Made by a program: the position numbers and the translations under genes
Origin: a virus
Lineage: Duplodnaviria; Caudoviricetes
Reading direction: 5' to 3' (one strand)
Virus record (IMG/VR): IMGVR_UViG_3300035208_003115
DNA length: 64,000 bases
The notes under the pieces: model-generated
The model's input: the letters and a program-made list of their open reading frames with translations, nothing else
Database searches by the model: none
Told to the model about the DNA's origin: nothing
Shown: positions 8,618 through 57,786 of the stretch, one piece after another
Layout: every line of letters starts with the position of its first letter
How positions within the stretch are numbered: position 1 is the first letter of the stretch

Positions 8618-8618
8618 A

Positions 8619-10495: not shown

Positions 10496-10505
10496 TTCGG
10501 AAGTC

Positions 10506-12208: not shown

Positions 12209-12220
12209 ATATGTTAGATT

Positions 12221-12934: not shown

Positions 12935-12948
12935 TTAAATTCCTTGAG

Positions 12949-13239
12949 TTAGACCTGTTCAGGATTGTCTCGATAAAGTCTATATTTCCCGAGCTTCAAT
13001 ACTAGGTGCTTCTCTACACCCGGAGAAATCATCTCCTGTTTGTCTACCAGACGAGACATAGCCCAACCGCCTTCCGGCGTTGAAGGACAGTATTCTTCAG
13101 TAGAAGAGGAGATATGAAAAGATGCGATTTCAGTATTCTGATCATTGCTAACCGAGATTACTTCACAATCAGGTGGAAGCCCCAACCATTTGGCCAGAGC
13201 TTCATAGGTCATCCGGAAGATGGCGCGATGTTTAGGCAT
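12949..13239 (-). CDS. Hypothetical protein
   Basis: ATG 13239 after GGAGGAG. Confidence 0.7.
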   Translation of the reverse strand: MPKHRAIFRMTYEALAKWLGLPPDCEVISVSNDQNTEIASFHISSSTEEYCPSTPEGGWAMSRLVDKQEMISPGVEKHLVLKLGKYRLYRDNPEQV

Positions 13240-13903
13240 TGCTATCTCCTCCTGTATTACTATCTGTAAAAAACTCAGTATTTCTATCGAGGGCCTGGGC
13301 ACAATTCATGCTTCTTACCGAAGACATGCTACGAGATAATAGGGTATATGTTTCGCTAATTCCCTTACTAGTTGCATCATAGTTTAGTGTGGATCCGGCA
13401 TAGCCACTAATTCCACCAATGCCTACAGATCCAGCTTCAGAGAAGGAATCGATATTGGCTCCCATGAATACGAATCGCCACATAGCTGTCTGGCATTCTT
13501 CAACTAGTTTCTTGAGATCATCTTTCTTAATCTCGCGACTTGAGTTTTCCTCGCCGTCAGTAATGACAACTGCAACAATCCGACCCGGGCGACTATCTTC
13601 GGGCATGGAATTGACATATTCCTTGGTCTCTTGGATTGCCTTATGCAGGCCGTCCAGAAGAGCCGTTCCACCTCTCGGGGAATAGGTCAGGTCATTCAGT
13701 TTGGGGACATTAGCAAGAGGAACTCCGTTGAAGTCTACTTGGTATTCATGGTCAAACTGGACCAGTGTCATAGTGGCCTTGCCTGGAAGCTTCTGTTGTT
13801 CTTCAAGAAAGTGATTAAATCCACCGATTGTATCTTTGGCTAGGGATGACATCGATCCCGAGCGGTCAATGACAACTGTAATATGTGTATAGTTCTGATC
13901 CAT
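13232..13903 (-). CDS. von Willebrand factor A domain protein
   Basis: MIDAS DRSGSM, GGTALLD, VITDGEENSS, FMGAN. Confidence 0.92.
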   Translation of the reverse strand: MDQNYTHITVVIDRSGSMSSLAKDTIGGFNHFLEEQQKLPGKATMTLVQFDHEYQVDFNGVPLANVPKLNDLTYSPRGGTALLDGLHKAIQETKEYVNSMPEDSRPGRIVAVVITDGEENSSREIKKDDLKKLVEECQTAMWRFVFMGANIDSFSEAGSVGIGGISGYAGSTLNYDATSKGISETYTLLSRSMSSVRSMNCAQALDRNTEFFTDSNTGGDSNA

Positions 13904-14397
13904 TATTTCTCTCCCTTAGTTAGATCCGCTTCTTCTGCAGCCTCGGCCATTTTTTCTTTTAGATCATCTGCCAACTTGACGGGGACCTCTCTGATTCCTT
14001 GAATCTTTTTCATAAGTTCCTCATTCATTGGAGCTAGCTCTACGACAATACAGTCTTCTTCTGTCATGGCAATATTCTGCCGGCTATCCATGATGGGAAC
14101 ATAGGCGGGACTTTTCATTTTCTTTCCATCTGCTCCCGTTACTTCCTTACCTGCTTCTGGGTTCTTGGTCATAACAAGAGACCTAATAGAACCGGTTAGG
14201 CCATGGGGCCCCGTTACAGACATCTTTACTTCTACGACTCCATTAAGACTCTCTCCCGTGTTGGCATCGAAGATTTGAACGTCCGGTCCCTTAACGCCTG
14301 TTTTTCCGGGGTTGGCCCAGATCCCTGTCATAATTGTATTCCCTTCAGGGGTCTTGTTTCCCGACTCAACGAGATAAGTAATTACGACTCTACGCAT
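13903..14397 (-). CDS. Hypothetical protein
   Basis: 164-aa ORF; SD AAGGA; TAATG coupling. Confidence 0.75.
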   Translation of the reverse strand: MRRVVITYLVESGNKTPEGNTIMTGIWANPGKTGVKGPDVQIFDANTGESLNGVVEVKMSVTGPHGLTGSIRSLVMTKNPEAGKEVTGADGKKMKSPAYVPIMDSRQNIAMTEEDCIVVELAPMNEELMKKIQGIREVPVKLADDLKEKMAEAAEEADLTKGEK

Positions 14398-14511
14398 TGT
14401 AGTTATCCTTTAATCAATTTTAAGACAGAAGAATATGGATAGGAAGTACTGAATGGTGATATCTCAGAGGTTAGCACGCAATTTCCTAGCACGTATTCTT
14501 ACAGCCTCAAT

Positions 14512-14590
14512 TGGTGGAGCGCCTGGGAATTGAACCCAGCTGGTATTCTCATTGCAAGTGAGACGACCACCCCATGCAGTCCCGCGCCCC
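14512..14590 (-). tRNA. tRNA-Ala(UGC)
   Basis: Acceptor GGGGCGC/GCGCTCC with G3:U70; TCTCA-CTTGCAA-TGAGA; T-arm CTGGG-TTCAATT-CCCAG; ACCA end. Confidence 0.9.
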
Positions 14591-14591
14591 A

Positions 14592-14665
14592 TGGAGCCCA
14601 CTGACGGTACTGCCCCGTCATCTCCACTTTACGAAAGTGGTGCATCTCTTCAATGCTTAGCAGGC
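14592..14665 (-). tRNA. tRNA-Thr(CGU), atypical T-loop
   Basis: GCCTGCT/AGTGGGC; D-stem GCAT/ATGC; CCACT-TTCGTAA-AGTGG; GACGG-GGCAGTA-CCGTC; TCCA end. Confidence 0.85.
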
Positions 14666-14685
14666 TTACGACAGTGCCAAGGGAA

Positions 14686-14805
14686 TTACTTGCGAAACTT
14701 GTTCAGGAAGCTACGGGTCTTGGCCGTCCACGTGGCTCCCCATCTGGCCCAGCTTGCTGCGCCAGCAGCAAACGTTATTGCTAGGATGATGAGGTTAGTC
14801 AACAT
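14686..14805 (-). CDS. 39-aa membrane peptide (not in ORF track)
   Basis: AAGGAG SD; MLTNLIILAITFAAGAASWARWGATWTAKTRSFLNKFRK. Confidence 0.6.
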   Translation of the reverse strand: MLTNLIILAITFAAGAASWARWGATWTAKTRSFLNKFRK

Positions 14806-15718
14806 GAATGGTCTCCTTGATTACTTCTAGTACCTTCTCTGGGATTATAGCAATATTGCACGGGTTGTTCAACTGGCAATGTGTAAAGCATGGAACAGGT
14901 CTACATACTGCTTCCTTGGGCCTAACTGGCTCTACATACCTCACAGATGGCCCAATTGGCCCCACAAACGGCCCTTTCTGACCCGATTCTTGCGCACAGC
15001 CCATGGTGGCCCCCATGACTATAACAGAGGGCAAATTGACTGATTCAGCCAGATATGAGGGCCCGCTATCAACACCTACATAGAACTTGGCTCTCTCTAG
15101 AACCGCTGCTGTTTCTTGGTACACTGTTTTACCACAGAGGTCTATTGTCCCGGGTACACGCTTGTCAGATCCGATGCCTATCTGAACTACTTCTATACCC
15201 ATGGACTTCTTTATCATGGATACTAATTTTGTGAAGTGCTGAATGGGCCAGTCTTTACTTGCGACTCGAGAGGTGGTATGGATAACGGCATAAGTATTAT
15301 TAGGAATAATGGGGGATATATTTTTTCTGGCCTCGTCGCCTATATTAAAGCGGATATGTTTATCTTTAATGGGAGTGGTTAATAGACCCGTCCTAGATGC
15401 GTACCAGTCAATCATATGAGAGTTACGAGTCTCAGGAGTGTGATGCCACATTGTATCGTAGTGGTTGGCCCTGGCCATCCGGGCTATGTGGTCAGATTGT
15501 TTCCCGCGGAGATATTGATATACATCGGGGTAAGAACCGCCATCATATAGAACGATATCATTGATCTCGGGGTTCCCCGCCAGTAGACCTTTATAGACCT
15601 TATTTGTGTGAAATCGAATTTGAACATCGGGGTATTGTCTTTTTATTTCAGAGATAATAGGGGTTGTCATTAAGACGTCTCCCATCGTCTGAAATAATAC
15701 TAGATCGAATATTTTCAT
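14795..15718 (-). CDS. Glycosyltransferase family 9
   Basis: MGDVLMTTP, YP, NPEI, SKDWP, DLCGK, YVGVDSGPSY. Confidence 0.9.
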   Translation of the reverse strand: MKIFDLVLFQTMGDVLMTTPIISEIKRQYPDVQIRFHTNKVYKGLLAGNPEINDIVLYDGGSYPDVYQYLRGKQSDHIARMARANHYDTMWHHTPETRNSHMIDWYASRTGLLTTPIKDKHIRFNIGDEARKNISPIIPNNTYAVIHTTSRVASKDWPIQHFTKLVSMIKKSMGIEVVQIGIGSDKRVPGTIDLCGKTVYQETAAVLERAKFYVGVDSGPSYLAESVNLPSVIVMGATMGCAQESGQKGPFVGPIGPSVRYVEPVRPKEAVCRPVPCFTHCQLNNPCNIAIIPEKVLEVIKETIHVD

Positions 15719-16851
15719 TTCCAGTCCTCTAATATATCCACTGTTCTAGTTGCGACCTTGGAGGCAATATTATGCCACTCGTATGGTTGCATATCAATGG
15801 CTGCTTTTTCTCCTAGCTTTTCCATCTCTTTGGGATGTTCGTAGGCCCAGCGCATTTGCCTTCGAAGGTCTCCAATGTCTGCATTCCACCACTCATGACC
15901 AGATTGAACGGGCTCTCTTAAAAGCCAGGGAACATCTGAAACGGGAATTTGCCGACACTTAACGAGAAGACCATTTGTTTCATTCATATAGGAACGATGA
16001 CCCGATGCATCTGTCATTATTGTCGGTACCCCACAGGCCATAGACTGCATAGTACCATAACTCCACCCCTCTCCTCGAGTAGGGAGAACATAGCAATTAG
16101 AAGCACGATGAAGAGATGCGATTTCATCATTTGTCATACTGTCTCCGAGGAATAGTAAATGAGCAGTTGACTTGTTGGCTGTTCTATATTTTATAATTAC
16201 GTCTTTAATCATTCTTTTGGATCTCTCGAAGTCCCCGCCGGAGTATGCCTTTAAGACAAGTGTAACGTTGTCCCTAGCTGAGAACTCTTGGAAATATGCG
16301 TTTAGGAGAAGATCTGGGCCTTTACTTGTTTTGTAGTCCATAATACTAAGGAATACAAACTCCTTCCTGCCTATAATTTTTGCAGGACTAATATTCGGGT
16401 TATATCTTTGTAGATTAACTCCTAGTGGAATTACCTGAATCTTTTTTTCGGGCAATCCTCCTTTGACGAAGGCTTGTTTTCCCCATTCTGTTGGAACCCA
16501 TATCTCATCTAATGGGACTTGTTTCTCTATCAACTGCCAGACATATGGGCACCGATCGGTCTCATATATGGTAGCGCAAATATTCGGAACACCCTGCTTT
16601 CGTTCTACGATTCTAGATGGTGGCATATGATTAATATAGATATGGTCATCCGGAAGAGTTGTTCGTTCCATTTCTTGGAGCTTAGTTAGTTGCATATTAG
16701 AGAATACATTTGAGATAGAAGACCAGTTATCCAGAGGGGTTAGTCTCGTCGGGACACCGATGTCATATAGTGCGAGCGACAACTCTCTAACGACTAGAGC
16801 TATTCCAGAGATGTCTTTATACGGTCCATAGATTTCTATTCCAAATGACAT
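15715..16851 (-). CDS. Glycosyltransferase family 4
   Basis: YETD, IWVPTEW, KGPDLLL, YVLPTRGEGWSYGTMQSMACGVP. Confidence 0.9.
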   Translation of the reverse strand: MSFGIEIYGPYKDISGIALVVRELSLALYDIGVPTRLTPLDNWSSISNVFSNMQLTKLQEMERTTLPDDHIYINHMPPSRIVERKQGVPNICATIYETDRCPYVWQLIEKQVPLDEIWVPTEWGKQAFVKGGLPEKKIQVIPLGVNLQRYNPNISPAKIIGRKEFVFLSIMDYKTSKGPDLLLNAYFQEFSARDNVTLVLKAYSGGDFERSKRMIKDVIIKYRTANKSTAHLLFLGDSMTNDEIASLHRASNCYVLPTRGEGWSYGTMQSMACGVPTIMTDASGHRSYMNETNGLLVKCRQIPVSDVPWLLREPVQSGHEWWNADIGDLRRQMRWAYEHPKEMEKLGEKAAIDMQPYEWHNIASKVATRTVDILEDWK

Positions 16852-17807
16852 TATCGATCTCCCAGATCGTGGTCTATCATCATTTGAATCAGTTTTTCAA
16901 ATGTGATAGTAGGTTTCCATCCTAGCAATTTTCTAGCATCTGAGGAGTCTCCACACAGAAGGTCTACTTCAGCCGGGCGAACAAAGCGATTATCCCGCCT
17001 TATGTATTCTCTCCAGTCTAAGCCCACATATCTAAATGCAATTTCAATTAGTTCTTGGACTGTATGGGTTTCACCCGTAGCGAATACCCATTCCCGTGGC
17101 TCATGGTGTTGCATCGCCATATACATACCTAGGGCATAGTCTTTTGAATAGCCCCAGTCTCTTTTGGCGTTAGTGTTTCCTAGGACCAGTTCTGTTTGTG
17201 CGCCATGCTTAATATTAGCGACGGCTTTAGTAATCTTTCGGGTAACAAAGTTCTCTCCTCGGCGAGGAGATTCATTATTAAAGCAGATGGCCGAGATACC
17301 GAAGAGATTATAGGATTCGCGATAGTTAATAGTAGTCCAGTGGCCGAATAACTTGGATATTCCGTAAGGACTCCTTGGATAGAATGGAGTCTTTTCGTTC
17401 TGGGGAGTTTCAGCTACTTTGCCAAACATCTCAGAAGTAGAAGCCGTAAGGAATTTTGACTTGAAGTCTGAGTTACGAATGGCCTCGAGTAGTCTAAGAA
17501 CTCCTAATCCTGAGATATCTGCAGTTGTAATAGGCTCATTGAAACTCACATGAACATGAGATTGAGCCCCTAGGTTATAGACCTCATGGGGCCTAATTGA
17601 TCTGAGAATTCTATCTAGGGAGGATTGATCCGTGAGATCTCCCTGGACAAGTTCTATGTTAGAAAGGATGGACTCTATTCTACTCGTATTGGGTGTAGAG
17701 GTGCGGCGCACGAGACCATATACTTTATATCCTTTTTCTAGTAGGACTTCAGCCAGGTATGAGCCTGTCTGACCGGTGATTCCGGTGATAAGAGCTTTCT
17801 GTTCCAT
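16851..17807 (-). CDS. gmd: GDP-mannose 4,6-dehydratase
   Basis: ALITGITGQTGSYLA, NLGAQSHVHVSF, STSEMFG, PRSPYGISK, ESPRRGENFVTRKIT, RDWG, RPAEVD. Confidence 0.97.
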   Translation of the reverse strand: MEQKALITGITGQTGSYLAEVLLEKGYKVYGLVRRTSTPNTSRIESILSNIELVQGDLTDQSSLDRILRSIRPHEVYNLGAQSHVHVSFNEPITTADISGLGVLRLLEAIRNSDFKSKFLTASTSEMFGKVAETPQNEKTPFYPRSPYGISKLFGHWTTINYRESYNLFGISAICFNNESPRRGENFVTRKITKAVANIKHGAQTELVLGNTNAKRDWGYSKDYALGMYMAMQHHEPREWVFATGETHTVQELIEIAFRYVGLDWREYIRRDNRFVRPAEVDLLCGDSSDARKLLGWKPTITFEKLIQMMIDHDLGDR

Positions 17808-19048
17808 TATACTTCCTCGGGTCTAATTCTTATGTTAGTTGTTTCAGTATCGATATTATCAAATAAGTTTTCCCACTTTTTAATAATTGGTGCCCAGTCG
17901 AACTTCTTGGCGAATTCTTGGGCATTACGTCCTAGCTCAGTCCGCATAGCTTTATTCATAGCTAGTTTATCCATTGTTTCTTTAAGATGTTTGACATCAA
18001 CGATAGCTCTTCGGATGTGAGAACCGGCTTCAACAAGAAATGACGCGACCTTAATTAGCCCCCCACCTTTTGATTGACCAATAAATTCTGGTCCAATAGT
18101 ATACGCCGGAACAATGTTTGGGATGCCCGCGGCCATTGACTCAATAATTGGTATACCGAATCCTTCACCCCAGGCAGTATTAACATGAACATCCATACAT
18201 CCGTAGATTAGACGAAGAACAGGAGGAGGGACTCCGCGGTTAGGATGGAGGTCGGGAGTCACATAAACCCTATCTGATATCCCGAATTCCAAACCCAGTC
18301 GGCTTAGTAACCACCCTTGATCTTGGTTGCAAGCATGAATTAGAAGTCTTGACTTAGGATGAGTCTTTATGTGCTCCGAGAACGCTTCATACAGGGCGGG
18401 GATATTTTTGCGAGGCTGGTTTCTTGCTACCATTCCGAATACTACTACATCATCAGATCCAAACATTTCTATTCTTTTTTGTGATCTAACTTCTTCCGGA
18501 AGGGGACTAGACCAAAGCCCAAAGTCAATTCCATGATATATCATTTCGATATCTCTATTGAGGGCCATTCCAGCAACTCGTTGACCGAATTGGCTAAAGG
18601 TTAATGGCGTGTCGATATATTGTAGGAAATTTTTCCACTTGTCGGGAACAGGCATTCCGTCGATAGGAACATAAGAAACCAAATGATGGTTTTTAAGATT
18701 GGGGTGCTCTAGAATCCAATCGACCATATAGATGTCCCCGAAGTAGACAACAATATCTGGCTTGAAGTCTTCGAGAATAGCATCTATAGTCTTTCCGCCA
18801 TTCTTATCTTTCATTGTCTTGTCTTCTTTAGAAAGACTAGTGTGATATAGCTTGAATGGGAAGTTTGAAGACCGAAGACCCTCATATGGATAGGTTGGTT
18901 CTTTGGCGGGAGGCTCGAACCACCCCTGGCATGCTATCTCATATTTTTTGGTAGCAGCCAGACGTAGTAAAATGTCGTGCGTAATTACTCCATAGCCAGT
19001 ATGAATGGATGGAGTTTGAGAACACCACAGAATTCTTTTTTTAGTCAT
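17807..19048 (-). CDS. Glycosyltransferase family 4
   Basis: P..HTGYG, YVPIDG, HGID, ARNQPRKN, GEGFGIPIIESMAAGIP. Confidence 0.9.
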   Translation of the reverse strand: MTKKRILWCSQTPSIHTGYGVITHDILLRLAATKKYEIACQGWFEPPAKEPTYPYEGLRSSNFPFKLYHTSLSKEDKTMKDKNGGKTIDAILEDFKPDIVVYFGDIYMVDWILEHPNLKNHHLVSYVPIDGMPVPDKWKNFLQYIDTPLTFSQFGQRVAGMALNRDIEMIYHGIDFGLWSSPLPEEVRSQKRIEMFGSDDVVVFGMVARNQPRKNIPALYEAFSEHIKTHPKSRLLIHACNQDQGWLLSRLGLEFGISDRVYVTPDLHPNRGVPPPVLRLIYGCMDVHVNTAWGEGFGIPIIESMAAGIPNIVPAYTIGPEFIGQSKGGGLIKVASFLVEAGSHIRRAIVDVKHLKETMDKLAMNKAMRTELGRNAQEFAKKFDWAPIIKKWENLFDNIDTETTNIRIRPEEV

Positions 19049-26141: not shown

Positions 26142-26561
26142 CTATTTAGATATTTGGCTGATTACTTCCATCACTTTTTCTGGGGAGATAAAGGCATCGG
26201 GGTTGTACGGTTCAGATTCCCACGTATCAAATTGATTCTTCCGCATATACATTCTACCCTTAATTAGATTGATATTCTCCTTGTGACCAAAAATAAGAGG
26301 ATCAGATGTCCCCCATAATACTATAGCTTTTACTTTAATATCCCAGCAAAAGTGTTGAAGAAAACTGTCACAACATATTACGTGTTTGGCTTCTTTAAGT
26401 AGCTTCTCCAGTTTATCTAGGGGCTCCTTGACTACTTCAACGACTTCGTAGTCCACAGAGAGAAGCTTGAATAGCTCCTCCCAGTAAGGGTATTCCTTAG
26501 CGCTATGATTTCCATTGCGCAGTGGCCGGACGCCCCTTGAGTAGACTACTAGAGGCTTCAT
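26142..26561 (-). CDS. GT9 C-terminal lobe (split glycosyltransferase)
   Basis: AKEYPYWEEL, VICCDSFLQH, AIVLWGTSDP. Confidence 0.75.
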   Translation of the reverse strand: MKPLVVYSRGVRPLRNGNHSAKEYPYWEELFKLLSVDYEVVEVVKEPLDKLEKLLKEAKHVICCDSFLQHFCWDIKVKAIVLWGTSDPLIFGHKENINLIKGRMYMRKNQFDTWESEPYNPDAFISPEKVMEVISQISK

Positions 26562-27556
26562 ATTTCTACCCCATAGAGTTCAGCATATGCGTACTTGATT
26601 TCTTTGTCTTTCCATCCCTTATCAATGCAGTATTTAAATATATTATGTCTATCGGGGTTACACAGCTTTTGACCTTCAGCGAGACTTATACAATTCTCTC
26701 CCGGGAATAGTTCCGGATAGCATACGGCCAATACTACGTCCTTATACTTTTCTTTTATCTTAGGCAGTATTGATCGGAAAACTATATGGTCTCCCATCCC
26801 CGAGTCTAGATAACAAATCTTGTGTCCTTCGTATTCTCGGAGTGTTTCCCTATAGGCTATTTCGTCTCGGTCCCAATCTTCTTTCTGTCCGGAAGCTCTA
26901 ATCCCTCCCGTAGAAGCTCTGAAGTGATATGTGACAGCCGCTGGATCAACTATCAGCTTATACCCCTTTCTATATATCCCATAGGTGTGAAGGGTCTCTT
27001 CCCGGTGAGCGACGCAGCTTAAGCTAAGATCGAACTCTTGTATTCCTTTACGATAGAGATATGAACTATATAAATGTTCTACTTCTTTAATATCTGAATT
27101 GGGCCAATAGAACCATTGGCAATTACCATTATCAATATTTTTAATTGTATTAGGAGGAAAGTCTTGTTTGATTGTCCCCGGCGGTATAACTAGTCCGGCT
27201 ACAGCACCAACGCCATTCAGCATACGTAACTCTAGTATTTGGAGAACGGTAGGTTCAGCTACCTCGTCATCATCTATTCTCCATACGAGGTCAGTTGCCT
27301 TATCCTGAATCATCTGGTGGCCCCAGTGTTGACCACGGCCCAACCCATAGATAACTTCGAACTCAATTCGCTTAGTGTTGATTAAATCAAATAGATGCTG
27401 ATAGATGGGAGTCTCTCGCATCTCTATACGCGTGGACGAATCGTCATAGATGATGATTTTATCTGGTGTTCGAGTCTGGTTAATGACAGACATTAAAGCC
27501 ATGGGAAGTTGGTCATATCTATCTTTAGTACAGATGTCTACAGTTATATGCGCCAT
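26558..27556 (-). CDS. GT2 glycosyltransferase fused to GT9-like N-terminal lobe
   Basis: ICTKDR, NQT..PD, YDDS, RIDDD, HREET; C-terminal SGMGDHIVF..ILPKIKEKY. Confidence 0.85.
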   Translation of the reverse strand: MAHITVDICTKDRYDQLPMALMSVINQTRTPDKIIIYDDSSTRIEMRETPIYQHLFDLINTKRIEFEVIYGLGRGQHWGHQMIQDKATDLVWRIDDDEVAEPTVLQILELRMLNGVGAVAGLVIPPGTIKQDFPPNTIKNIDNGNCQWFYWPNSDIKEVEHLYSSYLYRKGIQEFDLSLSCVAHREETLHTYGIYRKGYKLIVDPAAVTYHFRASTGGIRASGQKEDWDRDEIAYRETLREYEGHKICYLDSGMGDHIVFRSILPKIKEKYKDVVLAVCYPELFPGENCISLAEGQKLCNPDRHNIFKYCIDKGWKDKEIKYAYAELYGVEI

Positions 27557-29709
27557 TAGTTGTCCTTGTAGACATAATCGCTATACTTCGTTTCTAGATT
27601 GTCGAAGATAAAGCGAGGAACTGATTCTTCCGTTATTGCCACGAACTGATACTCTATCGGCCTATCATAAAGATCTTTGCCAGCTTTGACTATTTCCTGT
27701 ATCCTATTCCTATCTTTGAACTTGTCTAGATTAAGATCTTGGTGGGCTGTAGATTCAATCTTACGAATGATTCCCTCCACTCCTCCAAAATAGGAGAAGT
27801 GCCAGCCTCCGTTAGAAAGTGTTTGTATATTTTTATCATAATCTTGAAAGTAGCGAGCATCGCAAGGGGTCATTGTTTTCATTATACCCCAAGGCAAGAT
27901 TCGAGCCCAATCCCACTTATCTTTGGCCTGGAGGTTTAGGTTATAGTAAAAAAGATCCATTGAGAATACATTAATACCAGTAGCAGGATTATACCTGCGG
28001 ACAGCATCTGCTTTTGGAATTTCGTCGGCATCACTTATTATAATAATATCCTCGTCTTTGCACCTATCGGCAAGAGCGGTTTTAAGGTGATCTCTTTGCC
28101 GACGTTCTATATACCAGGACTTATCAGTTAAATTTTTCATCTTATCAAGTTCGGGATAATTATCTAGAACAACGTGGATGATTTTATTCAGGTATTTTTT
28201 AAATCGCTCTTCATTAAGTTTAAAGTATAGAGGCTTAGGAATAACTCCGTGAGTTAGTGTAGCTTCACAAATGACGAAGTAGTCTACTACATCCCATAAC
28301 TCTTCTAGCCTTGCTTCTAGAAGATCGAATTCATTATAAAATGGGAAACAATCGTATATCTTTCCCTTATTCGTAGAGATGGATTTGATATCTCTCTTAT
28401 TGCAAAACCAGATTGTTGTAAATTCTCCAACATAGAAGAGGTTGAATTTCTCCTCGACAGCCCTCTGCACTCCCTCCCATGCTCCTAAATCATGACCGCA
28501 GAAGAGGGTATCGTCTCCGACCAATCGAGACCAGGCATCTATATCTGCGCACACTCCCTCGTACGTGTGATCGGCATCTATAAAAATCATATCGGGCTTA
28601 ACGCCCTTTTCGAGCAGTAAGTCGGAAGCGTTCTTTGAGTTCATTCGTAGCGGAATGATCTTACCTTGCTGGATAAGATCTAGGTTGTTCTGCATAAACT
28701 CATAGAAGGCATGATCTCCATCTTTCCATCTAGCCGAGACATGATTGGTATCTTGCTCAATTGGTGTTCCTGCCCACGTGTCAACGCAGTAGATAACTCC
28801 GCCTTCCATTAGATTATCGCCTAGAACTCTAGAGGATTTGCCATGCCAGGAGCCTATTTCTACAATAACCTTTCTTTTCCTAGCTTCTTTGCCGAGCCAG
28901 TATAACTCTCCGTCATTCATAAAGCCGTCGCATTGGGACGCCCGGGATATATCAACCGGATTATAGCGTTGTTTTAGTATCGCATCATTGCGAGCCATTA
29001 GTTCGGCCCATCCTGGATGGTTCTTAAATGTTTCATTGCCAGCATGATACATCGGATAATCACTAACCATGCGTTTCTGATTTTGATCTAAATATTCAAA
29101 TGCCGTTGGGAGAGATACTGTTTTGAAGCCTGCGTCCTGGGCCCGAGCACAGTAGTCCACATCTTCATCGAAGCCTGGTGAGAATATTTCATCTAGATAA
29201 CCAATAGTATCAATTACCTTACGTTTAATACATGCACAGAAGAAGATTAGGAATTGACGGTTAGCCGGCGCGTTATAAGAAAGCATGGGCCCAGTGATGC
29301 CTACGGATTCATCCGTTTCAAAAGGCTTTAGTAAATCGTTGAGCCATTTATTGTGGCCCTGGCCTAGGTCGAGGATTTGCACATCATTATTAAGGGGGAT
29401 GATATACTCGCCCGTAGCTATCTTCATGCCCTCGTTGGTAGCCCTAGTATAGCCGAGTCCTTCGTCGAACCAGAGTAGTTTGAATGGAGAAGGGCTTATA
29501 GCGTGTCCAGAGTCATCGGGGTCATCGATGCCCCGTAACCGATATTCTAGACTCTCAACATATTCTCGGGTGTTATCAGTGCAACCATTGGCGACAATAA
29601 TTACTTCGACATCGGTAAGGTCTGTATATTTTATGATGGATTCTAAGCAGGGCTTAAGTAGATCTGAGCAGTGGTTAAAACTAGGAATCACTATGCTAAT
29701 TTTTGGCAT
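27556..29709 (-). CDS. GT2 - methyltransferase - GT17 tri-domain protein
   Basis: ISIVIPSFN..LNND..EDVD; VEIGSWHGKS..FIDADH.Y..GHD; YDCF.FYNE.DLLE.RL.EL...SDADEIP...GGWHFSY. Start re-called to MPKISIV (29709). Confidence 0.9.
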   Translation of the reverse strand: MPKISIVIPSFNHCSDLLKPCLESIIKYTDLTDVEVIIVANGCTDNTREYVESLEYRLRGIDDPDDSGHAISPSPFKLLWFDEGLGYTRATNEGMKIATGEYIIPLNNDVQILDLGQGHNKWLNDLLKPFETDESVGITGPMLSYNAPANRQFLIFFCACIKRKVIDTIGYLDEIFSPGFDEDVDYCARAQDAGFKTVSLPTAFEYLDQNQKRMVSDYPMYHAGNETFKNHPGWAELMARNDAILKQRYNPVDISRASQCDGFMNDGELYWLGKEARKRKVIVEIGSWHGKSSRVLGDNLMEGGVIYCVDTWAGTPIEQDTNHVSARWKDGDHAFYEFMQNNLDLIQQGKIIPLRMNSKNASDLLLEKGVKPDMIFIDADHTYEGVCADIDAWSRLVGDDTLFCGHDLGAWEGVQRAVEEKFNLFYVGEFTTIWFCNKRDIKSISTNKGKIYDCFPFYNEFDLLEARLEELWDVVDYFVICEATLTHGVIPKPLYFKLNEERFKKYLNKIIHVVLDNYPELDKMKNLTDKSWYIERRQRDHLKTALADRCKDEDIIIISDADEIPKADAVRRYNPATGINVFSMDLFYYNLNLQAKDKWDWARILPWGIMKTMTPCDARYFQDYDKNIQTLSNGGWHFSYFGGVEGIIRKIESTAHQDLNLDKFKDRNRIQEIVKAGKDLYDRPIEYQFVAITEESVPRFIFDNLETKYSDYVYKDN

Positions 29710-30238
29710 AATAGAAGTATACCTTTCTAACCCAAAGTTTAAATGCTTCTTGAGTCCTTGAGCCCTTTGCCCAGTTGCAACTGCCACAACATGCCACAAC
29801 ATTTCCGACTATATATCCTTTAGAGCTATCTATTCTATCAATACCGCTACCAATAAATGTGCCGTTTTTGATGCTATTCTTATAGATATTGCTAGGAGGT
29901 TGATTACAATAGAAGCAGTTTTGAGAGACTAGTGCTCTAAAATCACTCTTTGTTAGTGAGAACTCTATTCCTCTTGTTCGTGCAGCGCACTTAATCTTGC
30001 TCAAGGCCTGATTAAAGGCTGCTTCTCCTAAAGGAAGTTTTCTATTAGAACCTTCGTATTTCAAACACCCACACGACTTGGTATGGCCTCTATTTATCTC
30101 GTGCGAATTGGTTATTCTTATTTTTCCACAGTCGCACTTACACTCCCATAAAGCAAAGCCATTATAATTTCCTGGTAGTCTTTTGACTATTGTTAATTTA
30201 GAGATCTTACGTCCAGTCAGGTCTTTGAATCTAGGCAT
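29696..30238 (-). mobile_element. Free-standing HNH homing endonuclease gene
   Basis: DLTG...LT...W.C.CDCG...SCGC N-domain; CFYC..GIDRIDSSKGY..GNVV.CC..CN.AK nuclease domain; flanked by duplicated target-gene starts. Confidence 0.85.
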
Positions 30239-52035: not shown

Positions 52036-55000
52036 TTATAATCCTGTCCATCTTAGATAAGAGAAGTAATCAATGAATTTCTCGTCGAGTCGGAGGGCAC
52101 CCTGCTGAAGAGGGTCTAGGCCTATATTAATTGTAGCACGCTTTTCTGGAATAGGAACGTCTTCGTACCATCCAGATGCGATTACTTCTACGTCTCCCGG
52201 CGTGATTACCCGAAGATTATCCTGAGTATGATGATCTAAATCTGCATTGAAGTATAGATACGTTCCAGAGGGAGTAGGGAGTGACCCTACCGGATGAGTT
52301 GGGGCATAAGTATCAAATGTAGTTCTAAGTCCTGCGGCATAATTAAGCATAGTCAGGTTAGAAGCAACAACAACTAACTTACCGAAGTCAGTCGGACTGT
52401 CATACTCGTCTACTTCATATGCCAAAAAGTTAGCGTGTCCCGAGTGAGCGGCGATGGGCCATACTGATGTCCCGTCAACTTTGAGTGAAGTGATGTCGAT
52501 ATTATGCGCGCTATCGCTAATCCCATCACCCAGATCAGAGAAATATCCCTGGCCTCCTATCGCCGTTCTAAAGTATCCATCATCTGAGCTATAGACCCAT
52601 CCAGAAGCGAGAGGTAGGGCTACATTATAGGAATCAGATGGACTCATAAATAGAATCTTAACTTCGTAGTCTCCGTATCCCGAAATATCCGGGTTAACAG
52701 AGTATAACAGCATGTCATCGAAAGATGTTCCAAGAGTTTTATTAGGGAAGAATGCAGACATAGCCCCAGACAAGGTCATCGCCCAACCCGTTAAAGAGTG
52801 TGATTCCCATGCCGGGCCGGTTGAAACTACCCATCCTCCGCCGATTGGGCGAATTGCGTTGTTAAATACAATTGCTTCTTGGTATGCCGTCGGTCCCCAG
52901 GGGGCATTTGCGTGTTGAGCCCAGTCGGTTCCGTCAAATGACCAAACCTCAGATGAACCGATAAGACCAGAGGAATCAATCTTATTAACTCCGCCTATTA
53001 CCCATAGCCTGTCTCTGTATACGACAGTAGCGAATCCAACCGACATGTCAAATGGTAATGTTCCCCAGCTTGTCCAGCTAATGCCGTCGTCTGAGTACCA
53101 CATATCATGGAGAGGAGCGCTGACACTTGCCATAGGATCTGCGGTATATGGGGCAAACGGAATAGCACTTTGATTTCCTGCGATAACCCATATCTTGTTC
53201 TGGAATGCAGTTATCCCACCCTGGACACGTGGACCCCATGGGCAAACGGATGCCGTCCAGTTTGTCCCATCTGTTGTCCTCCAAACGGCCGACTGGTTAC
53301 AGCCTCCTAGATCAAACAGTGTTTCGTTGGGTTCTCCTGGATGAAGAACAACCATACTGTTATAGGCAAGACCTGCATCAAAATATCCCTGGGGGCCATA
53401 GCCGACTGAGTTATCTTCGTTAATCCCCGCCCAGGTTCTCGACCACCTGCTACCATCTAGAGTTCTCCAGAGACCCGCCCAGGTCCTGGCATAAGTATAC
53501 CCCTTGAAACTGGCCGTTTGCTGATTGCTTCCATAGCGTTTCATCATGACTAGAGGGTGGCCATCATTAATATTAAATGGGGTTGCAGAGGAAGCAGAAT
53601 CTATATAGACCGGAAGTTCTGATATCCAGTTAGTCCCGTCTAAGGTTGAAGCCCTTCGGATATAGAGACTTGTTCTATCTGCTGCATTGACGATTTGTTC
53701 AACGGCCCAAAGTTTAGGAGTAGTTCCTGCCTTTGTTACATAGTAACCGACTTCATCTCCCCAGTAGAAGTCTACGATGGGGGCCGGGCGAGGAATCGAA
53801 TATGAATCCCAGTCTGTGGCATGGAAATCAAAAGCCCAATTTATACCTATCCCAGACGGATTAGCATAGAAATCACTAGGCCCCGAGATATATCCTGAAG
53901 CACTTATAACGTCAAGATCAATGGGGCTAGAATATGTTGCAATGGCCGTTCCATCAAACTGAGTTAAAACGGGAGTTCCATTTGGAGAAACTGTTCCTTC
54001 GTTTCCTGCTGCTAAGCGGAAATATATCTCTGCTCCTATGACAGGAAGACCATCTTCGTCTAGTAGTGTTCCCAAAAGTAGGGACTGGGAACCCCCAATC
54101 GGGAGGGTATTCGGGATTGCTTCTAACGAGAAGCTGTCATCATTTAGGACTTGCTTTTTATCGCTGATCCAAATGAATCCGTCATAACCCATTCCATGTA
54201 GGGGGTTGAAGTCCCACGGAAGTCTATGCCACTCTGATGCTGGAGTGCCTTCATATCTGATCGTAAGGCCTGAGTGGTCATGATTAATGGTAACAAGACC
54301 GCTCGTGTCAACGGTAAACTCAAATTGAGGGCTTGTGTCTAGGTCTGCAACATGTAGCCACTCAACTCCGGACGGAGCGACTACTCCATCTTGATCATAG
54401 AGAAAGTATGGGCTACTGAATGTTGGGTTTAGAAGCTGATATGAAACTTCACCAGAAGGAATTGTTTCGACTATCTCAGTAGAAAATAGATAATCTCTAT
54501 CGTCGTGAATATAGAAATTACCAGTGTGGATATCAGGTGACCATATATCCCCTGAGACAGGAACGATTCTAACAAGCAAGTCTTGAGAGTTGGGGTCAGA
54601 GACTCCGGACTGATAATAGATCCTGTCCACTCCCGAAGTCACTGAAGAGTAGAAGTCAGGAACTACATTTGTATTATTCGCGCCACCGTCAAATGGAGCT
54701 AAGTCCCAAATGAATGCAGAGGGGTCAGTTTCCCCAGAACCCCACAGAATGGGGAACGTTTCTAGTATCTCTCGAGTATAATCTACAAATCTTTCTGAGG
54801 CGATATTAGAACTTGGATCTACAACCGAACTATAGAAGGTCGGATCAAACAAAGGATTAATTTTAGCTATACCCGAAACAGTAGATGGATACTCTCCAGA
54901 AACATATATAGGATATCCGTCGTAGAACTCTCCATCATCGAATAGATTAGTTGGATATCCACTCTGGGGAAGCCATCCATAATAGTCGAGGGATGTTTCT

Positions 55001-56136
55001 CTGCTGACTCCGTTAATTAAACCTTGGATAGTTGAATTAGAACGGAATTTAAACACCGTAAGAAGACGGTCTTTATAATCTTGGTTGGATTCCCCGATAA
55101 GGCGAGGAGTATCAAATCTTAGTCCATATTCATCAAAATAGTTCCATACAGCTAGTGGCTCTCCAGAATATGCAACACCATCGATTATGGTTGTAGTATA
55201 TCCCTCATTTGTATAGAAGTATTTTTTATCATAGTCGAAGATGCCATAGTCGAAGTCAAGCTTGAACTTAACGACATCAACTAGGGACTGAGTATAGAAG
55301 TATCGATGATCGATATCTGTCGCTAACCCCGATATAAGCGGGTCGGCATAGACGACTTCATCAAACAGAGGGAGGACTCTAACATATTCGGTGTTCCCAC
55401 TCCAGTCGGCTTCTGTGTTTTCTTTTATAGGAATTCGGACATCGTAGACTCTAAAGGTTTCGCCAATTAGAGTGACGAGATAGTCTCCGTTTAGGCAGTA
55501 ACCTTGAATTAGACCTGATACTAGGGAGCCAGCAGAATCTAAAAGACTGACCTTACTAATGGGTTCGAAGTTCTGCGGTTGCGCATATGGGAGCTCCATG
55601 TCTCCGATTACGAAGAACTTCTCCATCTTGACTTCATCCGCCTCTTGGTATAGACGAATATAGGATGTCTTTTCTTCCTTCCACATATCTACATGCGGGA
55701 GATCGTAGGGAATATTTTCATCTACAGCGTTAAATGAAACTCCACTTGGGAGCCCGGCAGCTTGAACCCCTATCGCTGTTATCCGTGTTGGGGGGACAAG
55801 ATAGGTCATCTGGTCTAAATCTTCTACGATAGAGATAGGATTGGCGTCTCCAGTCGCAGTATGAACAACGTCTTCACTTAGTTCAATCTTTCTTGGAAGG
55901 CGAACACGTTGAATTTCACTTACTACGTTAATGTCGCAAGTGCTTAAGGCCATAACTCCAGAGGCAGTAGCATAGCTTCGTTGAACAATATCAAACTCGC
56001 GACCAATAGGCGCAAGTAACTGTTGCCCGACTGAACTTCGCTCAATCCGGAGTTTAGTCCAGCTTGGGTAATAGTTCGCCAGAGATTGTGTATTGAATGA
56101 ATAGTACTTGTCAACTACGCCGGAGGCATGGTCCAT
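52036..56136 (-). CDS. Large baseplate wedge/tail protein with Ig-like and Asp-box/Kelch propeller domains
   Basis: FDE.GL....RL.GESN..YK.RL motif; G.P..GA.I.F...T..DG.A.A.Y Ig-like; W.T.DG..W repeats; LWVIGG. Confidence 0.8.
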   Translation of the reverse strand: MDHASGVVDKYYSFNTQSLANYYPSWTKLRIERSSVGQQLLAPIGREFDIVQRSYATASGVMALSTCDINVVSEIQRVRLPRKIELSEDVVHTATGDANPISIVEDLDQMTYLVPPTRITAIGVQAAGLPSGVSFNAVDENIPYDLPHVDMWKEEKTSYIRLYQEADEVKMEKFFVIGDMELPYAQPQNFEPISKVSLLDSAGSLVSGLIQGYCLNGDYLVTLIGETFRVYDVRIPIKENTEADWSGNTEYVRVLPLFDEVVYADPLISGLATDIDHRYFYTQSLVDVVKFKLDFDYGIFDYDKKYFYTNEGYTTTIIDGVAYSGEPLAVWNYFDEYGLRFDTPRLIGESNQDYKDRLLTVFKFRSNSTIQGLINGVSRETSLDYYGWLPQSGYPTNLFDDGEFYDGYPIYVSGEYPSTVSGIAKINPLFDPTFYSSVVDPSSNIASERFVDYTREILETFPILWGSGETDPSAFIWDLAPFDGGANNTNVVPDFYSSVTSGVDRIYYQSGVSDPNSQDLLVRIVPVSGDIWSPDIHTGNFYIHDDRDYLFSTEIVETIPSGEVSYQLLNPTFSSPYFLYDQDGVVAPSGVEWLHVADLDTSPQFEFTVDTSGLVTINHDHSGLTIRYEGTPASEWHRLPWDFNPLHGMGYDGFIWISDKKQVLNDDSFSLEAIPNTLPIGGSQSLLLGTLLDEDGLPVIGAEIYFRLAAGNEGTVSPNGTPVLTQFDGTAIATYSSPIDLDVISASGYISGPSDFYANPSGIGINWAFDFHATDWDSYSIPRPAPIVDFYWGDEVGYYVTKAGTTPKLWAVEQIVNAADRTSLYIRRASTLDGTNWISELPVYIDSASSATPFNINDGHPLVMMKRYGSNQQTASFKGYTYARTWAGLWRTLDGSRWSRTWAGINEDNSVGYGPQGYFDAGLAYNSMVVLHPGEPNETLFDLGGCNQSAVWRTTDGTNWTASVCPWGPRVQGGITAFQNKIWVIAGNQSAIPFAPYTADPMASVSAPLHDMWYSDDGISWTSWGTLPFDMSVGFATVVYRDRLWVIGGVNKIDSSGLIGSSEVWSFDGTDWAQHANAPWGPTAYQEAIVFNNAIRPIGGGWVVSTGPAWESHSLTGWAMTLSGAMSAFFPNKTLGTSFDDMLLYSVNPDISGYGDYEVKILFMSPSDSYNVALPLASGWVYSSDDGYFRTAIGGQGYFSDLGDGISDSAHNIDITSLKVDGTSVWPIAAHSGHANFLAYEVDEYDSPTDFGKLVVVASNLTMLNYAAGLRTTFDTYAPTHPVGSLPTPSGTYLYFNADLDHHTQDNLRVITPGDVEVIASGWYEDVPIPEKRATINIGLDPLQQGALRLDEKFIDYFSYLRWTGL

Positions 56137-56138
56137 TG

Positions 56139-57368
56139 TTAGTTATACTCGATAACGATTGGGGTAAAGTCTATGTCGTGTTCATATCCCTGCATATTCT
56201 GCTCTACAAGATGCTTGTCATCAAAGAAGGCAGTATAGTTATAAGAGAGAGGCTCGCGGACCCTGTTTGTTATAAGAACCCCATCAACGATATCTGCAGT
56301 TGTTGGAGACCATATATAAACGGCCAGCTTATCTGCTGAGGTGTCTTCGTCTTCGACATCAAGAATTTCATTAGACACATCCATGATTCTTTGAATTAGT
56401 TCATTTCGTACAAAGCCTTCTCCCATTGGGATATTATTAACATAGTCGTATATTGCATCCTCAACTTGCTCAACTATAGCAGGCTTATCTAGCTCTGTGG
56501 TTGTTGGTCGGAATAGAATCTTTGCGTATGCCTCTATCCCGATATATCTTGGAGATCTTACTGTGCAGAACTCTCCTGCCGCGGTAACAGAGGAGACAGA
56601 GTTGAAGACGTTCTGGAGTATTGCTTCAGAAATGATGGGAGTAGAGCCGACTACGATAAGTCCATATGTCCCGATCCCGTGCATATAAGGTATCGGTAGA
56701 ACATCAGAGACCCCAGCAACAGATAGGGCTGCAAGACGGATAGAGGTTATGTTAGCAGCTTCTGCCGCTGTTACTGCCTTAGATAGAATGTATCTATATT
56801 CTTCGTCTGTCTGAACATCGCTTCCGTTATCGATTGCCTCTATGTTGGTTGTTAATAGGCCGGGGACATCGAGTCCATGGGCCACCAAGATATTGGGTCC
56901 CACATTAGAATCAGAGCCCGGGACAATCGCTTCGACTGATCCGATAGCGCTTACATCTCCATTGTTAAATGCTATATCAGAAGCTACGCGATATTGAATG
57001 ATTCCATCTTCTGATTGGACTAGCGTTCCGGTTGGGATTGGGTTAGTAATGCCGGGTAGAAGATCGAGAGATCTGGATGAACAATAGAATTTCTGAACAT
57101 TAGCCCGAGTTCCTAAAACAGATCCACCGCGGGGGACGTTAAGAAGAACCCCCATAAGATCCAGGCCATCGCCTGTTGCTGAACTTAGATATGACTGAGC
57201 GAGAGTAGAGTTTAATAGTTCGTTATTTTGAGAGAGCTTGGCATTAACAGCCCGGAGAATAGATTGGGTCAAGGTTCCGGCCGAGACCCTAGTTAGAGCG
57301 GAGTTAGCTCTAAGCATTGCCAGTGTTTCTAGGTTCATCAAGTCTACTGGCTTATTGACGATGGACAT
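56139..57368 (-). CDS. Baseplate J/gp47-like wedge protein
   Basis: YLSSATG..LD..G, IP.GT.V, EA..PG..SN, G.D.QTDEEYR, ALSVAGV.DV. Confidence 0.9.
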   Translation of the reverse strand: MSIVNKPVDLMNLETLAMLRANSALTRVSAGTLTQSILRAVNAKLSQNNELLNSTLAQSYLSSATGDGLDLMGVLLNVPRGGSVLGTRANVQKFYCSSRSLDLLPGITNPIPTGTLVQSEDGIIQYRVASDIAFNNGDVSAIGSVEAIVPGSDSNVGPNILVAHGLDVPGLLTTNIEAIDNGSDVQTDEEYRYILSKAVTAAEAANITSIRLAALSVAGVSDVLPIPYMHGIGTYGLIVVGSTPIISEAILQNVFNSVSSVTAAGEFCTVRSPRYIGIEAYAKILFRPTTTELDKPAIVEQVEDAIYDYVNNIPMGEGFVRNELIQRIMDVSNEILDVEDEDTSADKLAVYIWSPTTADIVDGVLITNRVREPLSYNYTAFFDDKHLVEQNMQGYEHDIDFTPIVIEYN

Positions 57369-57369
57369 A

Positions 57370-57786
57370 TTAAGACTCCTCTACCTGCAGGCCTTTTGTA
57401 TAGTTGAAATCGAATACCATTTGTGTGGCTTCTATCCCTACATCATTCTGAAGGGTAAGATAAGCGACGATGGTATCGATAGCGATTGGGATGACTCGAA
57501 GATCTATATCTTCCTTGGAAAAATACCCGTTCTGGGTCAAGGCTCTCAGTATCTCTGCTCTAACTAAACTTGCATTTTGCCGCGTGTTTGGTTCACCGAT
57601 AAAGGTATACAACCGGGATCCTATGGAGGGAAACGCTTCAAAATCGCCAAGGATTGTATATGTATTTAGAATTATATCCTGGCGTGTAGTTTGGTCAATA
57701 GAGGCTAGGGCCAAATCTCCACCGGAAGAAACCACTAGATCCCCATCATCCGACATCTGGATGTCTTGTCGGGTGTACGAAGCCAT
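57370..57786 (-). CDS. Baseplate wedge/sheath initiator (gp25/gpW-like)
   Basis: GDL..S.GDLAL, QDI.....T..GD....P.IGS.L..FIG.PN. Confidence 0.85.
   Translation of the reverse strand: MASYTRQDIQMSDDGDLVVSSGGDLALASIDQTTRQDIILNTYTILGDFEAFPSIGSRLYTFIGEPNTRQNASLVRAEILRALTQNGYFSKEDIDLRVIPIAIDTIVAYLTLQNDVGIEATQMVFDFNYTKGLQVEES

Follow-up and report, generated by a model that had tools for sequence, protein, structure and literature searches.

Results

P0001, a modular baseplate-peripheral protein of the receptor-binding type

The window, by which we mean the whole 64,000-nucleotide stretch of viral DNA analysed here, encodes the protein P0001 in a baseplate module (Table 1). The gene order, running from the gp25-like gene through Baseplate_J to P0001, is the same in the relatives G001 and G003, which were obtained by scans of viral and metagenome sequences together with a further fragment, G002, and small contigs; near-identical DNA was not found in known phages. 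P0001 matches PHROG 21059, "virion structural protein" (E=1.7e-26), and occupies the slot after the J/gp6-like gene that is also that of wedge-periphery proteins of the P2 gpI, Mu gp48, and T4 gp7 type, but it is 4–7 times longer than these, carries domains of the receptor-binding type, and has no Pfam or solved-structure match to these families. No sequence or profile match links it to the P2 gpI/T4 gp7-like wedge family. Pfam at E≤0.1 gave nothing for its N-terminal 384 aa, for gp162 of Bacillus phage 0305phi8-36, for CDS0049 of Moorella phage MTATph1, or for five small homologues, while the family profile, run against PDB sequences, returned nothing at E≤0.1 (two marginal matches had E values of 0.26 and 0.38) and Foldseek with the model of the N part returned nothing at E≤0.001. 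P0001 is a modular baseplate-peripheral protein of the receptor-binding type.

Table 1. P0001, its parts, and other features of the window discussed in the text (SG, Ser-Gly dipeptide).
Feature	Position (nt)	Strand	Basis or remark
CDS P0001, 1366 aa, SG-rich, baseplate-peripheral	52036..56136	-	ORF list and translation
Baseplate J-like wedge protein (T4 gp6/P2 J type), directly upstream of P0001	56139..57368	-	PF04865, E=2.9e-19; phrog_6
gp25-like baseplate wedge protein	57370..57786	-	PHROG baseplate families
P0001 N module, aa 1–752	53881..56136	-	Found conserved in every full-length homologue; 20 SG vs 5.3 expected
First gp162-like segment, aa 13–108	55813..56100	-	HMM alignment with 0305phi8-36 gp162 and MTATph1 CDS0049
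Beta-rich domain nested in the gp162-like core, aa 109–297	55246..55812	-	Model pLDDT 70–90
Second gp162-like segment, aa 298–384	54985..55245	-	Stretch with the widest conservation; 286 hits in the database at E≤0.001
Densest SG region, aa 467–623	54268..54738	-	8 SG in about 160 aa
Ig-like beta-sandwich (Big_1/intimin-invasin type), aa 680–740	53917..54099	-	Weak Pfam Big_1 hit; pLDDT 70–86
Kelch-type six-bladed beta-propeller, aa 753–1144	52705..53880	-	Indel borders; Pfam matches of homologues; VIA
C-terminal domain, aa 1145–1366	52039..52704	-	Common to all full-length homologues; 5 SG vs 1.8 expected
Collagen-like (Gly-X-Ser/Thr) fibre, 2639 aa	30459..38378	-	209 SG from triplet repeats
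Glycosyltransferase block adjoining the fibre gene	26142..29802	-	GT2 + methyltransferase + GT17 fusion; GT2; GT9-like fragment
Second glycan block	12221..19048	-	GT4, GDP-mannose 4,6-dehydratase, GT4, GT9, GNT-I-like

Domain layout

AlphaFold2 models were made for aa 1–761 from an alignment of 12 sequences (mean pLDDT 53.5) and for aa 680–1366 from 10 sequences (mean pLDDT 51.1), and both are of poor quality. The chain begins with a gp162-like attachment core, in which a beta-rich domain is nested, and continues through a conserved SG-dense beta region and an Ig-like domain to the Kelch propeller and the conserved C-terminal domain. Gp162, a low-copy virion structural protein, and CDS0049, both of them small virion proteins, are homologous to the two core segments. 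CDS0049 and its neighbour CDS0050, which is also homologous to P0001 and SG-enriched, hold, like gp162, the same baseplate-module position as P0001, which joins in one chain what MTATph1 splits into two genes. P0001 differs from all three by its nested beta-rich domain, its Kelch propeller, and a C-terminal domain of another kind, and its individual SG sites are not conserved in them. The nested domain, which is absent from gp162 and contains SG131, SG207, SG246, and SG269, is predicted as about three propeller-like four-stranded blades, and its top VIA matches are all beta-propellers (Z 8–9.8 over 105–136 residues). The Ig-like domain aligns with intimin/invasin domains at VIA Z 9.2–9.8 and an rmsd of 1.8–2.5 over 77–79 residues.

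The propeller had been described in an earlier note on this sequence as an Asp-box/Kelch propeller. VIA recovers a six-bladed fold of four-stranded blades (Z 10–11.3 over 200–270 residues) from a model whose first half has low pLDDT, the matches being the Kelch domains of LZTR1, KLHL7/12, and Keap1 and galactose oxidase, with sialidases at Z 9–10. P0001 itself scores 15.9 bits against PF01344, under the cut-off of 20.1, and among the 11 family members PF24681 is matched in two (E=3.2e-11) and PF01344 in four (E=9.2e-6). The motif [ST]-x-(x)-D-G-x-x-W recurs five times at intervals of about 60 aa, and because its Asp directly precedes Gly, it does not fit the canonical Asp-box spacing (S-x-D-x-G-x-T-W); no BNR match was found in Pfam, and one homologue has a weak Sortilin-Vps10 match (E=0.008).

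The propeller extends over aa 753–1144 by the homologue indel and over aa ~763–1120 by the fold. In half of the ten full-length homologues (P0006–P0010), a linker of ~25 residues connects the N module with the C-terminal domain. The earlier suggestion of a recent insert is supported in so far as the propeller is a separable inserted domain, but its recent age is not supported. The domain is common to lineages that are merely 32–37% identical overall, one event on the tree accounts for its presence or absence (support 95/94), and under midpoint rooting a loss is favoured over a gain, so that the difference appears from the tree to be a single old indel.

SG is in excess in P0001 and at the background rate in its propeller

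The tally of the earlier note was reproduced: P0001 contains 28 SG, with 21 in aa 1–761, 0 in aa 762–1055, and 7 in aa 1056–1366. The flanks are also as described there, with [PAVIT] at −1 in 19 of the 28 and [VILEYW] after Gly in 22, and the SG-free middle segment is indeed rich in both residues (24 Ser and 28 Gly in 293 aa). Shuffled sequences contained 10.8±3.0 SG over the whole protein and 5.4±2.1 in aa 1–761, and the observed count was reached in none of 5000 shuffles for either. SG is the most over-represented dipeptide of P0001, while neither the reverse dipeptide GS (7 vs 10.9) nor TG (5 vs 8.1) is enriched. The reading in which Ser and Gly are merely abundant and the whole pattern, including the gap, is noise is very improbable in view of the shuffles, the ordinary level of GS, and the recurrence of the enrichment at shared columns in ten homologues; for the enrichment it is rejected, and it stands solely for the part of the pattern that concerns the propeller.

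As to that part, the claim that SG skips the propeller was not borne out. Zero SG in aa 762–1055, where 2.3±1.4 are expected, is not significant against composition (P=0.08), and a longest-gap test, in which 28 sites were placed at random, gave P=0.03, which is marginal and post hoc. Moreover, the propeller borders in the earlier note had been fitted to the SG gap. With the borders given by the indel and the fold, SG1056 lies inside the propeller and SG761 and SG1123 at its edges, which makes 3 SG vs 3.7 expected, and in the homologue P0003 the domain contains two more SG, at reference positions 903 and 973. The propeller therefore shows no SG enrichment, rather than SG avoidance, and its SG number, which is that expected from composition, does not support the proposal that it is kept glycan-free. 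The propellers of five homologues sum to 8 SG vs 15.9 expected, and a mild real depletion is possible, although these sequences are related and not independent.

Three other sources of the dipeptide were considered and rejected. The codons for Ser and Gly at the SG sites are mixed, and a DNA-level motif was dismissed because of this diversity; collagen-like repeats were dismissed because P0001 lacks triplet periodicity, unlike the 2639-aa fibre, the SG of which thus have a different cause; and serine-hydrolase motifs (G-x-S-x-G) were dropped because the contexts are x-S-G instead. The spacing of the SG sites is not periodic.

Conservation of SG sites across homologues

All ten full-length homologues are SG-enriched (251 vs 83.4 expected in total), with 16–25 SG vs 4.0–5.4 expected in their N modules. 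The excess occupies 33 alignment columns common to at least three homologues, 8 of which are common to at least seven, compared with three such columns for the next most conserved dipeptides. Six SG sites are kept in at least nine of the ten homologues, and four of these (467, 501, 510, and 589) fall in the densest SG region, where SG561 is also kept in 8 of 9. Within the 33 shared columns, Gly is kept while Ser is lost 34 times and the reverse occurs 10 times; the residues replacing Ser are Thr (8), Ala (8), Asp (6), Lys (3), and nine others. The acceptor hydroxyl is not the conserved feature, because Ala or Asp replaces Ser as often as Thr does. Distant homologues retain Gly at 510, 589, and 747 behind varied residues and have SG at only 1.33 times expectation on average, and the strong preference for Ser before Gly is limited to the clade of full-length homologues.

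Hydrophobic residues make up fractions of 0.61, 0.50, and 0.61 at positions −3, −2, and +2 of SG, against a background of 0.37, and Pro stands at −1 in 27%. In those regions of the model where pLDDT is ~60 or higher, SG falls in loops and is for the most part no more than two residues away from the end of a strand (207, 269, 324, 561, 612, and 622). This location alone does not discriminate between turns and glycan acceptors, because turns are also typical glycosylation sites.

A functional reading other than glycosylation, in which the sites are hinges for baseplate rearrangement, contacts with partner subunits, or targets of a different modification that the propeller does not need, draws on the clustering of eight SG in the most conserved 160 aa (467–623) and on the six nearly invariant sites, which are more than a generic turn requires. 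We regard it as unlikely nonetheless: hydrophobic flanks and positions in loops next to strands are explained more simply by turns, the spacing lacks periodicity, and no kinase or other modifying enzyme could be tied to P0001, the APH-like kinase at 9671..10567 lying within the glycan block.

Glycosyltransferases and the question of glycosylation

At least seven glycosyltransferase genes lie in the window, together with those for a GDP-mannose 4,6-dehydratase and methyltransferases, and the cluster is syntenic in G001. This setting invites the proposal that SG marks the acceptors of an O-glycosylation system encoded by the phage, with the serines of the N and C parts glycosylated, in the manner proposed for the collagen-like fibre, and the propeller left bare for ligand binding. 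In mycobacteriophages it is established that phage transferases O-glycosylate the virion (Freeman et al. 2023, PMC10527164, cited in PMC12582341). A Ser-specific enzyme would fit the lack of TG enrichment, and the 3- to 5-fold enrichment of the N module, specific to the full-length clade, and the low SG sum of the five propellers also speak for the proposal. The window and G001 are the clade members whose context reaches far enough, and both combine the transferase cluster with SG richness; G002 and G003 are fragments that end short of the expected position, and the absence of glycosyltransferase hits in G003 is uninformative because this fragment ends 300 nt past the collagen-like gene, where the block would be expected to start.

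Nothing that was tested indicates glycosylated SG serines, and the distribution of SG among proteins points the other way. Apart from P0001, the baseplate and fibre ORFs of the window contain 51 SG vs 44.7 expected in sum, and in two related phages the enrichment is confined to the orthologue of P0001 (21 vs 6.4 and 19 vs 10.0); six other fibre and baseplate proteins encoded downstream, equally or more exposed, show no SG enrichment in any of the three phages. The non-structural ORFs of the window hold 40 SG vs 35 expected in sum, so the cytoplasmic proteins are not depleted either. The stronger constraint on Gly than on Ser and the ready replacement of Ser by Ala or Asp also argue against an acceptor, as do the hydrophobic flanks, which are unlike exposed acceptor segments, and the expected SG number in the propeller of P0001. 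The turnover of sites, a check proposed in the earlier note, gave 79 SG in columns common to at most two sequences, about the chance level, and therefore no sign of selection for the number of sites. Finally, the flanks of P0001 differ from those of the collagen-like fibre, in which Pro never stands at −1.

MTATph1, with a complete genome of 176,639 bp, offers a comparison with a phage in which a six-frame search detected no GT2 or GT4 and no glycosyltransferase is annotated. CDS0050 is partly homologous to aa 521–711 of P0001 (hhalign 95%) and is the most SG-enriched large protein of that phage (18 vs 7.1±2.5), which shows SG richness in a counterpart without any detected glycosyltransferase. 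The earlier note had asked whether SG sites are conserved in such phages; MTATph1 does not conserve the five reference sites that fall in the homologous segment, a point in favour of glycosylation, and the SG of CDS0050 stand at other positions with different flanks. On the whole, the glycan idea is weakened, not refuted.

Discussion

In its N module and C-terminal domain, the SG pairs of P0001 are probably structural turn motifs, with the propeller at the background rate. We infer that SG acts as a turn or strand cap. Each conserved SG would be a tight turn or strand cap in the context hydrophobic-x-[P/A/V]-S-G-hydrophobic, in which Gly would give the backbone geometry and the residue before it would be small and polar, in most cases Ser. 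The Kelch propeller, an independent domain whose blades follow a D-G-x-x-W grammar of their own, would look "skipped" because it carries SG at the background rate. A Ser-Gly-specific phage pathway whose acceptors are the SG serines of P0001 together with the Gly-X-Ser fibre, and which leaves the propeller bare as a ligand-binding face, is in our estimate improbable. If it were true, the adsorption apparatus of a phage would carry a glycan shield directed by a sequon.

The virion glycans of mycobacteriophages are reportedly attached to capsid and tail-tube proteins, at extensions of their C-termini. Like those phages, the present one has glycosyltransferases of its own, with virion proteins as the presumed substrates, but the candidate sites in P0001 are putative Ser-Gly turns dispersed over a baseplate protein. 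In eukaryotic proteoglycans, Ser-Gly xylosylation uses a Ser-specific motif with acidic flanks in disordered segments, whereas the SG of P0001 are flanked by Pro and hydrophobic residues within beta structure, and no GT14-type xylosyltransferase was seen among the transferases of the window. Our search of the literature yielded no publication that describes glycosylated Ser-Gly in a phage.

Gp45 of Staphylococcus phage phi11 is a receptor-binding protein with a five-bladed propeller platform, and the propeller of P0001 likewise belongs to a baseplate-attached protein and is plausibly a carbohydrate-binding module; it differs in being of the Kelch type and six-bladed and in forming an optional insertion between the Ig-like and C-terminal domains. 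The propeller probably has a role in receptor binding.

The present case carries a caution, since a striking motif count beside a glycosyltransferase cluster is no evidence of a sequon, and the domain taken as an "internal control" was here a separately evolving module. That a phage rich in glycosyltransferases glycosylates its own adsorption apparatus is a minority possibility. P0001 represents a family of modular baseplate proteins of very large size, found in a clade of large, uncultured myophages, for which no structure has so far been solved or predicted well; in this family the optional Kelch propeller marks a likely host-recognition module.

SG enrichment in the baseplate protein

The 1366-residue protein P0001 contains 28 Ser-Gly (SG) dipeptides, with 21 up to residue 761, none between 762 and 1055, and seven from 1056 onward, exactly as the earlier note had counted by eye. 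Shuffling of the sequence gives 10.8 ± 3.0 SG, and in the N part 5.4 ± 2.1 are expected against the 21 observed; none of 5000 shuffles reached the observed number in either case. No other dipeptide in P0001 is as strongly over-represented as SG (z = 5.2), and GS, its reverse, does not exceed expectation (seven against 10.9). SG sites use a mixture of codons, which indicates selection at the protein level. The enrichment is therefore real, and the earlier claim that it is no artifact of composition holds.

The excess is common to all ten full-length homologs, whose N modules (residues 1–752 in P0001) carry 16–25 SG against 4.0–5.4 expected and whose C-terminal domains (residues 1145–1366) carry 43 in all against 17.5. 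Altogether 251 SG, against 83.4 expected, are distributed over 98 alignment columns, of which 33 are common to at least three sequences and eight to at least seven, while other dipeptides have three such columns at most. The 79 SG in columns with two sequences or fewer are about what composition predicts, so the surplus comes from conserved sites and not from turnover that upholds a site density. Six sites, at residues 413, 467, 501, 510, 561, and 589, exist in at least nine of the ten homologs (eight of nine for 561), and eight SG lie within residues 467–623 of P0001.

The hydrophobic fraction around SG, 0.37 in the background, rises to 0.61 at position −3, 0.50 at −2, and 0.61 at +2, and Pro occupies position −1 in 27%. 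Such flanks are characteristic of short links that join two packed strands. Where members of the shared columns lack SG, 34 still have Gly and only 10 still have Ser; in those with Gly, Ser gives way to Thr (8), Ala (8), Asp (6), or other residues (12), and columns 510, 589, and 747 have Gly even in distant homologs, with a varying preceding residue. Gly is the constrained partner, and it is not the hydroxyl group of Ser that is conserved. Both structure predictions were poor overall, and the context of SG was drawn from parts with pLDDT of ~60 or more, where SG occur in loops and usually no more than two residues from the end of a strand (207, 269, 324, 561, 612, and 622), with the exception of SG1321 inside a long strand.

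The Kelch propeller

Residues ~753–1144 of P0001 are missing from five of the ten homologs (P0006–P0010, 992–1049 residues), in which a ~25-residue link joins the N module directly to the C-terminal domain. Homologs in which this region is kept have hits to the Kelch families PF24681 (E = 3.2e-11) and PF01344 (four members), and a predicted model of residues 763–1120, whose first half is of low confidence, resembles six-bladed Kelch domains, galactose oxidase, and sialidases over 200–270 residues (Z = 10–11.3). Five motifs recur in the propeller at a spacing of ~60 residues; their identity as canonical Asp-boxes was rejected because the pattern is [ST]-x-(x)-D-G-x-x-W. In the N-module tree, one change accounts for which homologs have the propeller (support 95/94), and loss in P0006–P0010 is favored because midpoint rooting sets a propeller-bearing sequence beside the propeller-less group. 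The propeller-bearing lineages are only 32–37% identical overall. The earlier proposal of a recent insert stands as to a genuine module but not as to its recency.

For segment 762–1055, composition predicts 2.3 ± 1.4 SG, so that zero has P = 0.08; a longest gap of 295 residues among 28 randomly placed sites has P = 0.03, for a gap picked post hoc, and the absence is striking only against the enriched flanking rate (7.6 SG expected), a comparison that presupposes its conclusion. The SG-free segment is, hence, much weaker evidence than the enrichment itself. With homolog-based borders, the propeller holds SG1056, plus SG761 and SG1123 at its edges, i.e., three against 3.7 expected, and homolog P0003 has two further SG there; the sum over the five propeller-bearing homologs, eight against 15.9, could at best point to a mild depletion because these sequences are related. 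The view that SG skips the propeller is correct in that the enrichment is absent there, but avoidance is not what the counts indicate.

A second, partial propeller-like β domain (residues 109–297; pLDDT 70–90) is nested in the gp162-like core of P0001. Its top structural matches are all β-propellers (Z = 8–9.8), it is absent from gp162 of Bacillus phage 0305phi8-36, and four SG lie within it, which means that a propeller-type fold is in itself compatible with the motif.

The explanation we consider likely is that SG would mark glycine turns or strand caps that are conserved in a β-rich baseplate module, and that the Kelch propeller, a separately evolving and probably ligand-binding domain, would carry SG at background frequency. 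That the conserved SG serve another role, e.g., as hinges or interfaces, seems improbable.

Genomic context and glycan genes

No near-identical DNA was found among known phages, and the similarity of P0001 to gp162 and to Moorella phage MTATph1 is confined to short segments. Downstream of P0001 lie six large fiber-type ORFs and a 2639-residue collagen-like fiber. Two of the downstream fiber-module proteins have F5/8 type C (discoidin) carbohydrate-binding domains, and the 897-residue one of the two corresponds to two separate ORFs in each of the related contigs G001 and G003. The very large protein upstream of the wedge genes has orthologs of 2140 (G001) and 2456 residues (G003) and no Pfam or PHROG match. 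The primase-helicase fusion is 53% identical to that of G001 over 751 residues; the latter is longer by ~430 residues, which may represent an intein or an inserted domain.

Features discussed in the text (window coordinates unless stated)
Feature	Position	Strand	Remarks
P0001 ORF	52036..56136	minus	1366 aa; contractile-tail baseplate module
Partial propeller-like β domain	55246-55812	minus	within P0001
Baseplate_J gene	56139..57368	minus	PF04865, E=2.9e-19; immediately precedes P0001
gp25-like gene	57370..57786	minus	precedes Baseplate_J gene
Large protein	58622-63955	minus	at least 1777 aa; upstream of baseplate wedge genes
F5/8 type C proteins	40865-43558 and 43558-45063	minus	PF00754, E=5e-7 and 2e-3
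Collagen-like fiber	30459-38378	minus	2639 aa
Glycan gene set	7955-19048 and 26142-29802	minus	gene content and order kept in IMG/VR contig G001
Primase-helicase fusion	20761-23214	minus	817 aa
Primase-helicase fusion, G001	L018 3759-7520		1253 aa
CDS0049 and CDS0050, MTATph1	L021 5215-10852		519 and 1363 aa; adjacent, slightly overlapping

The glycosyltransferase (GT) genes adjoining the collagen-like fiber gene encode a GT2-methyltransferase-GT17 fusion (748 residues), a GT2, and a GT9-like fragment; two GT4, GDP-mannose 4,6-dehydratase, GT9, a GNT-I-like enzyme, a TylF-type O-methyltransferase, and an APH-like kinase are encoded elsewhere. G001, whose P0001 ortholog is 35% identical, is syntenic throughout, glycan genes included, and the GT cluster exists in both members of the full-length clade with far-reaching context. 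No GT was found in fragment G002 or G003, but this is uninformative because G003 stops 300 nt past its collagen-like gene, at the point where the GT block should begin.

O-glycosylation of the SG serines of P0001 is conceivable for a motif in exposed turns and a phage that clearly makes glycans, but we regard it as unlikely. The collagen-like fiber would be a more plausible and natural substrate, since its gene lies directly upstream of the first GT block; the glycosylation of collagen-like proteins in spores of Firmicutes offers an analogy. This fiber (3442 residues in G001, 2579 in G003) has two long, almost proline-free Gly-X-Ser/Thr tracts (GYTGASGTSG...), Gly/Asn-rich repeats, and a Cys-rich C-terminal part. 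Several results argue against Ser-Gly acting as a general sequon: the 209 SG of the fiber stem from Gly-X-Ser triplets, with flanks different from those of P0001; the other baseplate and fiber proteins are at expectation (51 against 44.7), as in G001 and G003, leaving the P0001 ortholog as the only enriched one in all three phages; and the non-structural proteins are not depleted (40 against 35).

MTATph1 provides a partial control, i.e., an SG-rich counterpart without a detected GT, given that six-frame searches of its complete genome (176,639 bp) found no GT2 or GT4 and no transferase is annotated. Its N module is split into CDS0049, aligning with reference residues ~3–104 and 298–384, and CDS0050, aligning with 521–711 (hhalign, 95%), so that genes of the baseplate module have undergone fusion or fission. 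Among the large proteins of MTATph1, CDS0050 has the strongest SG enrichment (18 against 7.1 ± 2.5), but the five reference SG sites of the aligned segment are not conserved. SG turns conserved in phages lacking GT, named in the earlier note as contrary evidence, were therefore not found in MTATph1. Together with the SG frequency in distant relatives as a group, only 1.33 times expectation, this makes the strong preference for Ser a property of the clade of full-length homologs. Once decomposed, the SG statistic is ordinary. P0001 adds a new protein, for which the models are poor, to the modular baseplate receptor-binding proteins.
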